Positions 52,614-55,158 of a stretch of 64,000 bases of DNA are shown piece by piece. Every line of letters starts with the position of its first letter. Positions within the stretch are counted from its first letter, which is position 1. The stretch is from Methanocaldococcus sp. 28A (GTDB lineage Archaea; AGJL01; Methanococci; Methanococcales; Methanocaldococcaceae). A model generated the notes under the pieces. It ran no database searches. It was not told the DNA's origin and was given only the letters and a program-made list of their open reading frames with translations. Position numbers and translations under genes: made by a program. The stretch lies in the NCBI GenBank assembly GCA_049852185.1, contig CP187540.1; one strand, written 5' to 3'.

Positions 52614-53342
52614 TTATAATAAACCTAACCTCTCAGCGACAATTCTATATTTAGCGATAACATCTCCTAAATCTTTCCTAAATACATCCTTATCTAACAC
52701 ATCTCTTGTTTCTTTGTCCCACAATCTCATAGTATCTGGGCTTATTTCATCAGCAACTAATAAATTGCCATCTTTATCTCTACCAATTTCAATTTTGAAA
52801 TCAACTAATATTATGCCTTTCTTGTCAAATAATTCCTTTAAAACCTCATTAACTTTTAGAGCAATTTCTTTAATCTTGTCTAATTCCTCTCTTGTAGCTA
52901 AACCTAAAGCTACGGCAATGTCTTCATTTAACATTGGGTCTCCATACTCATCATTTTTGTAATCAAATTGAACAATTGGAAATGGTAGTTCTTTTCCTTC
53001 TTCAAAAGGATATCTTCTGCATAAGCTTCCTGCAGCTATATTTCTAACTATAACTTCTATTGGTATAATCTCAACTTTTTTGGCTACCATATATCTTGGT
53101 TCTATATACTTTATATAATGTGTTTTTATCCCATTATCTTCCAAAACTTCAAATAATTTTGATGAAATTAGGGCGTTTAAATACCCCTTATTCTCTTTAA
53201 CATCATGCTTAGCTCCATTTCCAGCAGTTATATCATCTCTAAACTCAATTAAAACTTTATCATCATCAATCTCATAGATAGACTTTGCTTTTCCACTGTA
53301 TAGTGGCTGCTTTTTTAATATTTCTTCCAATTTTATCTCCAT
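52614..53342 (-). CDS. purC: SAICAR synthase
   Basis: YSGKAK, EVIVRN, LVDFKIE, DEISPD, DKDVFR. Confidence 0.96.
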   Translation of the reverse strand: MEIKLEEILKKQPLYSGKAKSIYEIDDDKVLIEFRDDITAGNGAKHDVKENKGYLNALISSKLFEVLEDNGIKTHYIKYIEPRYMVAKKVEIIPIEVIVRNIAAGSLCRRYPFEEGKELPFPIVQFDYKNDEYGDPMLNEDIAVALGLATREELDKIKEIALKVNEVLKELFDKKGIILVDFKIEIGRDKDGNLLVADEISPDTMRLWDKETRDVLDKDVFRKDLGDVIAKYRIVAERLGLL

Positions 53343-53449
53343 ACTTTCCCACCTAAGGAAGTTTATTGAGTTATAATCTTAAATTTAATTACTTTTATGG
53401 AAAAATAGTTTAACTTAATGTAATATAAATGTAATATAAAAATTTTAGC

Positions 53450-53561
53450 TTATAGTTGTGTGCAAAATAAAATAAACTTTAAAAAGGAAATTTTGAAAGC
53501 CTTCCTTAAAGAGGGCATTCATTAATACCTTATTTATTATAAACACTTTTGCACAATAATA
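53450..53561. mobile_element. MITE-like element family A, right end eroded
   Basis: TTATAGTTGTGTGCAAAATAAAATAAACTTTAAAAAGG...TTTTGCACAATAATA. Confidence 0.75.
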
Positions 53562-53586
53562 GGAACAAAAAAGATATTAAAGATTT

Positions 53587-53622
53587 TCGATGTGCCTCCC
53601 TTAAACGGGTTCGGCACATCGA
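53587..53622 (-). promoter_or_regulatory. Archaeal SECIS element in the selD 3' UTR
   Basis: mRNA UCGAUGUGCC-GAA-CCC-GUUUAA-GGG-A-GGCACAUCGA: 10-bp stem, GAA/A internal loop, 3 G-C pairs. Confidence 0.92.
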
Positions 53623-53659
53623 CTAAAGACGTTTTTACATAGAATCTTTAATAGATATG

Positions 53660-54662
53660 AACTGCCCAGCACCGAGTTAGACTTCAACTATTTCAACATC
53701 TTTACTTAATATCGCTTTTCCTTCACCTTTTTTCTTTACTTTTCCAACTTCAAAAGCATAACATTTAGCTTTTTCTAATTCATTAATTAAATCATCTTTA
53801 TATTCTTTTTTTGCAGATATTAGTAATCCTCCCGCAGTTTCTGCTCCATATCCTTCCAATAATGCATGGCCAAATAATTTACTCAACTCAGGAGTCTTTT
53901 TTATGCATGGTAAAGTATGGATTTCTATTAAAACATTGCTGTTCTTAGCCATTTCATTTGAATGTCCCAATATTCCAAATCCAGTAATATCAGTTAAGGC
54001 ATTTGCTATTTTATCTCCAACTCTTTCTTCTGCTTTTCTTAAAGCCATTAATCCATATCTATTTGATGTTGTCATTATTTCTATTGCTTTATCTATAATG
54101 TACTTTTTTTCCTCATCAGTAATGTTGATTAAATCTTTAAATTCCTCGGGAATCCTTGATAATGCCATCGCTGTTTGAGTTCCTAAGGGTTTTGTTAATA
54201 TTAAAATATCTCCCTCCTTAGCTCCACTTTTTGTTAGAACTTCTTCTTCTCTTCCAACGCCAGTAACTGCTCCTCCAATCAAAGGCCATGGGTTTAGTAT
54301 AGTATGCCCACCAACAATTGAGGTCTTATTTTCTCTACAAAAGTCTTGAAATCCTTTTAACATCTCCCTAACTATTTGTATTGGAAGTTTTTCAGGAATT
54401 CCAACAATTGCTAAAACACCTACTATATCTAATAATCCCATAGCGTAGATATCGCTTGTTGAATTACAGGCAGCTATCTTTCCTTGTATATATGGATTAT
54501 CTACAATCGGAGTGAAAACATCTACAGTCTTTGCAATGACTAATCCATTTCTTTTAATTACTGATGCATCATCACCTAATCCAACCAAAATATTTTTGTC
54601 TGATAAATCCTCTTCATTAACTATTCCTTTAACTAAAGACTCTAACTCGGTGCTGGGCAGTT
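53660..54662. repeat. Perfect 22-bp long-range inverted repeat (53660-53681 and 54641-54662)
   Basis: AACTGCCCAGCACCGAGTTAGA versus TCTAACTCGGTGCTGGGCAGTT. Confidence 0.95.
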
Positions 54663-54726
54663 TACAAGCTCATCCATGTAATTTAACCAATTCAGTTAAT
54701 TTTATTTTTTCATCTACTTTTTCCAT
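53677..54726 (-). CDS. selD: Selenide, water dikinase; selenoprotein (349 aa, Sec19)
   Basis: From ATG 54726: MEKVDEKIKLTELVKLHG-UGA(54672-54670)-ACKLP, the G(C/U)xCK motif; then GDDA, TVDVF, GGHT, TDITGFG, ETAGGLL; SECIS downstream. Confidence 0.96.
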
Positions 54727-54854
54727 ATTTTCACCAGTGAAAGTTATAAATTTATAAACCTAACCAATAACTAATTCTATTAATAAATTTGATGAGCTAT
54801 AAAATACTACCAATTAGACTTTCTAATAACCTTTGAGTTATTAAAGTTTTATAT

Positions 54855-55158
54855 TCTTCAAAATACCATAAAGATGTTAAGAAATAGCTCACAATTGCAT
54901 TTGCCCAAGCTTATATATTTTGGAATCTTATTATCATGGTATTTTATGTTTAGATATAGGGGATTTTAAACCAAATTTTAACTTATTTAAACGCTTAGAG
55001 TGCTATGATAATGAGATTGTAAATTATTTGTTTGAATGCAAAATATTTATGAATTGGATTTATTATTGGATGAGAGTTATAAAAACTCCAATATAAGAAA
55101 TGAGCTATCAAAAACTATAAAAATTAGAGCAATTGAGCTTTATAAAAGGATATATTAA
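54855..55158 (+). pseudogene. Decayed coding fragment, family unknown
   Basis: Protein-like pieces across frameshifts: SKYHKDVKK*LTIAFAQAY / LESYYHGILCLDIGDFKP...LFEC / NIYELDLLLDESYK...ELYKRIY*. Confidence 0.3.

Follow-up and report, generated by a model that had tools for sequence, protein, structure and literature searches.

A conserved long-range helix in the selD mRNA of Methanocaldococcus that may hold the 3' UTR SECIS beside the selenocysteine codon

How a SECIS in the untranslated region (UTR) of an archaeal mRNA communicates with the ribosome over 1 to 2 kb is described as an open question, and no archaeal SECIS-binding adaptor is known, according to a recent study of fdhA1 (PMC11881835). 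The selD gene of Methanocaldococcus sp. 28A poses this question in a concrete form. In the window analysed here, a stretch of 64,000 nucleotides, the coding sequence (CDS) of selenophosphate synthetase occupies positions 53677-54726 on the minus strand, on which all other features of this locus also lie, and comprises 349 codons, including one selenocysteine (Sec) codon, and a UAA stop (ORF listing with TGA read as U). The Sec UGA (54670-54672) is codon 19, in the context HG-U-ACK as read from the sequence and translation, and is kept in 30 of 30 orthologues compared. The SECIS lies beyond the stop codon, at 53587-53622, as recognised from the sequence and by a pattern scan. It has the features of the methanogen type, namely a basal stem (here 10 bp), a kink-turn-like GAA/A internal loop, two or three G-C pairs (here three) and an apical loop of 4-8 nt (here 6 nt), with the letters tcgatgtgcc-GAA-ccc-gtttaa-ggg-A-ggcacatcga, and the gene whose UTR contains it has an in-frame UGA. 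A run of six T residues 15 nt past the SECIS (53567-53572) may be an archaeal transcription stop. An Rfam scan of 53300-55000 with E values up to 10 returned sub-threshold chance matches only and no archaeal SECIS family.

The feature that may offer an answer is a pair of exactly complementary segments. One arm, at 54641-54662, begins 7 nt past the UGA and encodes K-L-P-S-T-E-L-E; the other, at 53660-53681, runs from the second nucleotide of the final sense codon through the UAA (53677-53679) and 17 nt into the 3' UTR, and is followed by a 37-nt linker (53623-53659) and then by the SECIS. A repeat search found this inverted repeat to be 22 nt long and 100% complementary with its arms 959 nt apart; the runners-up in 53300-55000 are a 15-nt repeat with 93% and a 30-nt repeat with 70% complementarity. 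The repeat search and the sequence bear out every selD position given in an earlier note on this DNA (arms, UGA spacing and SECIS distance), and its claim that such a 22-mer is very unlikely by chance also holds. With up to three mismatches allowed, the 22-mer has two sites only within the window, and none of 100 dinucleotide shuffles gave any match. The arm and its sub-words of 12-16 nt occur exactly twice in the 1.56-Mb genome. As a genome-wide control, the best exact complement between the CDS and the 165 nt around and after the stop codon was determined for 1,139 ORFs; the selD ORF read through its UGA would rank first among about 1,140 (-43.2 kcal/mol, 22 nt) and fwuB, another selenoprotein gene, second, while the top gene that does not encode a selenoprotein reached -20.5 kcal/mol. 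The Cys-containing paralogues ranked 990 (fwcB) and 104 (hdrA type) of the 1,139. A chance origin is ruled out by the window and shuffle searches together with the uniqueness in the genome; a dispersed repeat is ruled out by the presence of the arm at two places only, and an assembly artefact by the recurrence of the helix in 18 independent genomes. The one RNA run that was found contains 5% of the words; its five contigs, which are 90-95% or less alike and come from a relative, cover 53791-54712 only and are uninformative on the 3' UTR, the helix and processing.

Orthologues were sought in 41 genomes, 40 of the phylum (all Methanococcales) and one outgroup. A Sec-type selD with one in-frame TGA is present in 38 of these, the closest named relative being Methanocaldococcus sp. 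16A with 97% SelD identity. When the 3' UTR was scanned against the CDS from 51 nt upstream of the UGA, the selD helix was the best helix in all 18 loci that bear it. These are the 16 of 16 Methanocaldococcus loci with a 3' UTR and both loci of a second genus, probably Methanotorris; one further Methanocaldococcus locus ends at a contig edge and stands outside this count. Across the 18 loci the helix measures 17-22 bp and starts 6-10 nt past the UGA, and its energy lies between -32 and -43 kcal/mol, against -8 to -16 kcal/mol for the second best helix. Between the 3' arm and the SECIS there are 12-95 nt, depending on the locus. One orthologue of this set (locus L008) has its 3' arm 24 nt further downstream, wholly within the UTR, which indicates that the overlap with the stop codon is incidental.

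Evidence that the pairing itself is under selection comes from a MAFFT alignment of the 18 loci from the two genera. The helix has 19 core pairs, all of them Watson-Crick, and 96.5% of the cells are paired. Ten pairs are invariant and six have changed on both sides, one position appearing as G-C, U-A and C-G. None of 500 shuffles matched the observed covariation score, and sliding the partner by one to three columns reduces pairing to 31-39%. The stem of the SECIS, an accepted structure in the same alignment, gives a similar score, with 7 of 10 basal pairs changed on both sides. We regard it as very nearly certain that the selD helix is a real and selected RNA pairing. An inverted repeat that is maintained at the DNA level, by gene conversion or for recombination or cruciform formation, and that has no role in RNA, would also consist of Watson-Crick pairs throughout, as the core does. 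However, arms of 17-22 nt are short for gene conversion, and the extended helix of four species keeps a G.U pair that uses the U of the stop codon, which fits RNA pairing and not a DNA repeat. One arm is, moreover, constrained by coding; its changes are mostly synonymous, and the UTR arm follows them. As the arm sequence is unique in the genome, and as fwuB, hdrA and fdhA, selenoprotein genes without exception, show the same arrangement with arms of unrelated sequence, an origin at the DNA level appears highly improbable.

The distribution of the helix bears on what it might do. No selD helix was found in any of the 18 loci from the order's other three genera, which include named Methanothermococcus records. 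The UTR arm, whose absence or lack of covariation in orthologues the earlier note had named as the outcome that would tell against its reading, is present and covarying in 18 of 18 loci of two genera and absent from 18 of 18 loci of three others. In the loci that lack the helix, the distance from UGA to SECIS is about 990 nt, the same as in the helix bearers, and hence the helix is not required for Sec insertion. In these loci the stop codon and the SECIS are adjacent or at most about 50 nt apart: the gap is 0-15 nt in the 11 loci that were scored and about 47 nt, as judged by eye, in L105. Genera of Methanococcales differ in growth temperature, some being thermophilic and others cooler. The helix is confined to Methanocaldococcus and the second genus and is absent from the cooler genera. 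It is probably an enhancer and not a requirement, with an effect that we would expect to be greatest at 80 C and above. In three helix-less loci (L025, L028 and L029), from the genus to which the named Methanothermococcus records belong, a part of the CDS about 100-150 nt past the UGA could pair with the final codons, the stop codon and the 5' strand of the SECIS stem; this pairing would compete with folding of the SECIS and may be due to chance.

Folding of the naked 1,223-nt selD mRNA was predicted at 37, 65 and 85 C. All 22 helix pairs are present in the minimum-free-energy structure at 37 and 65 C; the structure predicted for 85 C retains 21 of the 22, with a mean pair probability of 0.89. 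The isolated duplex is predicted to contribute -15.7 kcal/mol at 85 C, of -27.0 kcal/mol for the whole molecule. Since the strands are antiparallel, the UGA, 6-10 nt on the 5' side of the helix, and the SECIS, 12-95 nt on its 3' side, leave the helix at the same end. Outer pairings around the core helix, UGA included, were also obtained with RNAduplex; they differ between species, and no claim is made for them. An ACGUC-like word in the interval between arm and SECIS in the 3' UTRs of selD, fwuB and hdrA was considered as a partner for GGAUG at the UGA and was rejected after inspection by eye of L006 and L016-L019, which revealed no covariation.

These properties suggest a mechanism in which pairing of the arms would form a G+C-rich helix of 17-22 bp and loop out about 960 nt of CDS. 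A SECIS that is about 1,050 nt away in sequence would then be held within a few tens of nucleotides of a ribosome with the UGA in its A site. Such tethering would raise the local concentration of the SECIS-bound complex for Sec delivery (archaeal SelB, Sec-tRNA and any adaptor) and should thereby promote insertion of Sec at the expense of termination. Only in selD is the helix near enough to the UGA to meet the mRNA entry channel, where it may in addition slow the ribosome. We estimate a probability of roughly 0.6 that the selD helix tethers the 3' UTR SECIS beside the UGA, possibly with an extra role in pausing in selD, and the benefit would presumably be felt at high growth temperature. The covariation, position, stability and specificity of the helix, its recurrence in other genes and the published proposal for fdhA all support the tethering of the SECIS. 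Counting against it are the absence of the helix from the three other genera, the reporter results given below, the exceptions among the hdrA loci and helix B of fwuB, the linker of 12-95 nt, which makes the geometry loose, and the need for ribosomes to melt the helix at every pass. The reading offered in the earlier note was that the duplex places the SECIS beside the ribosome and may pause it at the UGA; a selected duplex with the UGA and the SECIS at one end is now well supported, and the boost to Sec insertion and the pausing are what we infer from it.

A second source of evidence is the other selenoprotein mRNAs. A search of these for complementarity between CDS and UTR, which had been suggested in the note as a check, found the same topology in fwuB, hdrA and fdhA; the pairing arrangement of selD recurs, and in each of the four genes it is at the UGA-proximal end of the helix that the SECIS emerges. 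The fwuB gene of the same genome (G000:C1:932665-933972) has two nested 3' UTR complements just before its SECIS, the GAA of which lies at about L032:2931. In helix A (L032:1894-1905 with 2889-2900), the conserved UTR word GGUAUCCUAC pairs with codons 21-39 nt past the UGA. It outscores every other helix with the full CDS in 20 of the 22 loci with a pattern-recognised SECIS, starting 21-39 nt past the UGA and stopping 9-34 nt short of the SECIS (9-19 nt for 19 of these 20). When all 29 Sec-type loci from across the order are aligned, 6 of 19 pairs have changed on both sides and 84.4% of cells are paired, against 32-46% when the partner is slid, and none of 500 shuffles reached the score. Helix B (L032:1970-1982 with 2861-2873), with 13 nt paired at UGA+106, is restricted to this genus and showed no covariation. 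The fwuB loci of three deep-branching Methanocaldococcus (L047, L049 and L056) have an in-frame UGA and no helix, and pattern searches of 1.4 kb downstream and of the 5' region found no SECIS-like hairpin in them. Three loci of the Methanococcus group have only a shifted 9-bp pairing. One of these, L048, carries UGU (Cys) in place of UGA and has kept a SECIS-like hairpin, along with the short CDS:UTR complement that its Sec-type neighbours have; it looks like a recent conversion from Sec to Cys.

In hdrA, the top helix starts 25-50 nt past the UGA in 17 of the 20 loci with a recognised SECIS; counts made on diagonals fitted locus by locus lean towards pairing. It ends 16-23 nt before the SECIS, reaches up to 29 bp and shows compensatory differences between genera; in L064, for example, the CDS 35-63 nt past the UGA pairs with the UTR 18 nt before the SECIS. 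The hdrA mRNAs (L063-L091) have up to three nested helices joining the first 250 nt or so past the UGA to the 3' UTR ahead of the SECIS, the further ones starting 149-150 or 233-248 nt past the UGA. By pattern, 10 of the 30 hdrA loci have no SECIS of their own, and these ten were re-scanned (L085, L090 and L091 from other genera; L066-L068, L073 and L076-L078 from Methanocaldococcus). Only the SECIS of the downstream vhuD gene was recognised in the seven Methanocaldococcus loci. Arms near the vhuD SECIS were sought for the SECIS-less loci, and the candidates, of only 9-12 bp and about -9 to -14 kcal/mol, were not counted. In fdhA of this genome the SECIS lies in the 5' UTR and is flanked by 12 and 18 nt complementary to UGA+25 to UGA+54, in agreement with the published fdhA1 arrangement. 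In fruA and vhuU the UGA, as read in the sequence, is less than 100 nt from the SECIS, and so no such helix would be needed.

These comparisons allow a simpler role to be weighed, in which the selD helix is a local recoding stimulator, comparable to those of frameshifting and read-through or to the eukaryotic Sec redefinition element (SRE), and stalls the ribosome when the UGA occupies the A site. Any connection with the SECIS would then be incidental, the 3' UTR being just the nearest non-coding sequence that is free to evolve complementarity. Known recoding stimulators are stable structures with a spacer of about 5-9 nt from the recoded codon. The selD helix has a spacer in this range (6-10 nt in 18 of 18 loci) and is predicted to be very stable, and its linker to the SECIS is variable (12-95 nt). 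It is not, however, a contiguous local hairpin or pseudoknot, as its partner strand is 959 nt away. Furthermore, the helices of fwuB, hdrA and fdhA begin 21-50 nt past the UGA, too far to touch the decoding ribosome, whereas their other arm is always 9-34 nt (mostly 9-23 nt) from the SECIS or flanks it. It is closeness to the SECIS, and not closeness to the UGA, that is constant across the genes, which argues against a role as a roadblock only; we consider that role quite unlikely.

Tethering of a SECIS by base pairing has a precedent in print. Peiter et al. (2025, RNA Biol, PMC11881835) proposed 'SECIS repositioning' for the 5' UTR SECIS of fdhA1 in Methanococcales. In that paper, complementarity to the ORF is described for the 7 and 10 nt on either side of the SECIS of Methanococcus maripaludis fdhA1; the pairing would bring the SECIS to 43 nt 3' of the UGA, and the arrangement is kept in Methanococcales and is longer in the thermophilic genera. 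The selD helix is a 3' UTR, single-arm variant of this proposal. In both genes a sequence adjacent to the SECIS complements the ORF shortly past the UGA (in selD a perfect 22-nt complement, 37 nt from the SECIS and pairing 7 nt past the UGA), and the selD helix agrees with the published pattern of conservation in Methanococcales and greater length in thermophilic genera, in that all 18 loci from two genera have it and 0 of 18 from the three others do. The two differ in that the fdhA SECIS is in the 5' UTR about 400 nt upstream, flanked on both sides and within the duplex, whereas the selD SECIS is in the 3' UTR about 1 kb downstream. Unlike fdhA, selD has a single uninterrupted arm of 17-22 bp that lies 5' of the SECIS behind a linker of 12-95 nt, and its helix starts only 6-10 nt past the UGA. 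Within the sources covered, our literature search found the fdhA 5' UTR case as the only one in print and no 3' UTR pairing for selD, fwuB or hdrA. The earlier note was aware of no description of such pairing; the principle was in fact already published for the 5' UTR of fdhA (PMC11881835), and it is for 3' UTR elements that the sources covered gave no description. The accessible portion of a 2026 review (PMC13188914) cites this paper and PMC9622424 and leaves the pairing unmentioned.

Reporter data on such pairing are mixed. Peiter and Rother (2022) observed no strict limit on the distance between UGA and SECIS in M. maripaludis, and in their Bla reporter a 3' UTR SECIS works at 520-679 nt without complementarity (PMC9622424). 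With complementary flanks on a 5' UTR SECIS, Bla activity was not significantly changed and mRNA was about threefold lower, from which a marginal gain of about two-fold in activity per mRNA was calculated (PMC11881835). That the flanks altered mRNA abundance and not activity may point to a function in mRNA stability or regulation: the duplex could shield the ribosome-poor stretch past a slow UGA, serve as a nuclease target or act as a selenium-responsive switch on the level of selD mRNA. Such regulation would be plausible for selD, as SelD limits all Sec synthesis. Yet protection does not need a partner arm beside the SECIS, as is seen in four genes, and the duplex spans no more than 17-22 nt out of about 1 kb. 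We therefore think it unlikely that stability or regulation accounts for the helix.

Tethering of the SECIS can be set beside several other systems. Eukaryotic SREs are stable helices a few nucleotides 3' of a Sec UGA that work with a distant 3' UTR SECIS. They resemble the selD arrangement in this respect and differ from it in being local CDS hairpins that do not pair with the 3' UTR or move the SECIS. The bacterial SECIS, a SelB-binding hairpin directly 3' of the UGA, similarly places a structured signal within tens of nucleotides; it is a contiguous ORF hairpin, whereas the selD SECIS stays in the UTR and would be brought in by a separate long-range helix. In plant RNA viruses of the luteo- and tombusvirus type, long-distance pairings stimulate frameshifting or read-through. 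These span at least 1 kb and join a site 3' of the recoding event to a 3'-terminal element, as in selD, but they occur in viral genomes, serve another recoding event and involve no SECIS, so that the likeness is one of mechanism only.

Taken together, selD, fwuB and hdrA suggest a general design of Methanococcales selenoprotein mRNAs. With somewhat more doubt than belief, we propose as a rule for this order that mRNAs with a distant SECIS (selD, fwuB, hdrA and fdhA) are folded by covarying helices between UGA-proximal and SECIS-proximal sequences, and that the SECIS acts tens of nucleotides 3' of the UGA, as in bacteria. If this were true, the archaeal SECIS would be a short-range signal, and pairing within the mRNA would do part of the job of a eukaryotic SBP2-type adaptor and be indispensable at 80 C and above; it would also explain why no SBP2 homologue has been found. 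As the arrangement recurs in three or four selenoprotein mRNAs whose arms are unrelated in sequence, and as the longest pairings are in hyperthermophiles, the one-gene curiosity of fdhA (2025) becomes a candidate general principle. A covarying helix beside the UGA makes the question of how an archaeal SECIS communicates with the ribosome concretely accessible to mutation, and the recurring arrangement may supply a design rule for recombinant selenoproteins in archaea.

Some further features of the hdrA and vhuD region were noted. In this genome, the SECIS of hdrA (about L062 3549-3583, 77-111 nt past the stop codon) has UAA in place of GAA in its internal loop and a weakened upper stem, and the UTR arm is broken by small insertions; both arm and SECIS are intact in the nearest relative, whose protein is 99% identical. 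Judged by their sequence, the arm and SECIS of this hdrA look degenerate, and the gene may rely on the SECIS of vhuD, about 580 nt further downstream. At its base, the SECIS hairpin of hdrA (e.g., in L063-L075 and L084-L089) is framed by GAUGAGG ... GCUGAUG, which resembles a box C/D (kink-turn) motif, and the SECIS-less hdrA loci have a small hairpin in the same frame; the frame may form another kink-turn or serve to bind a protein. The vhuD SECIS itself (G000:C1:928840-928935, in the 3' UTR; seen via L031) lies in a three-way junction, whose outer helix (gccggaga / tctccggc) surrounds the SECIS together with another small hairpin.
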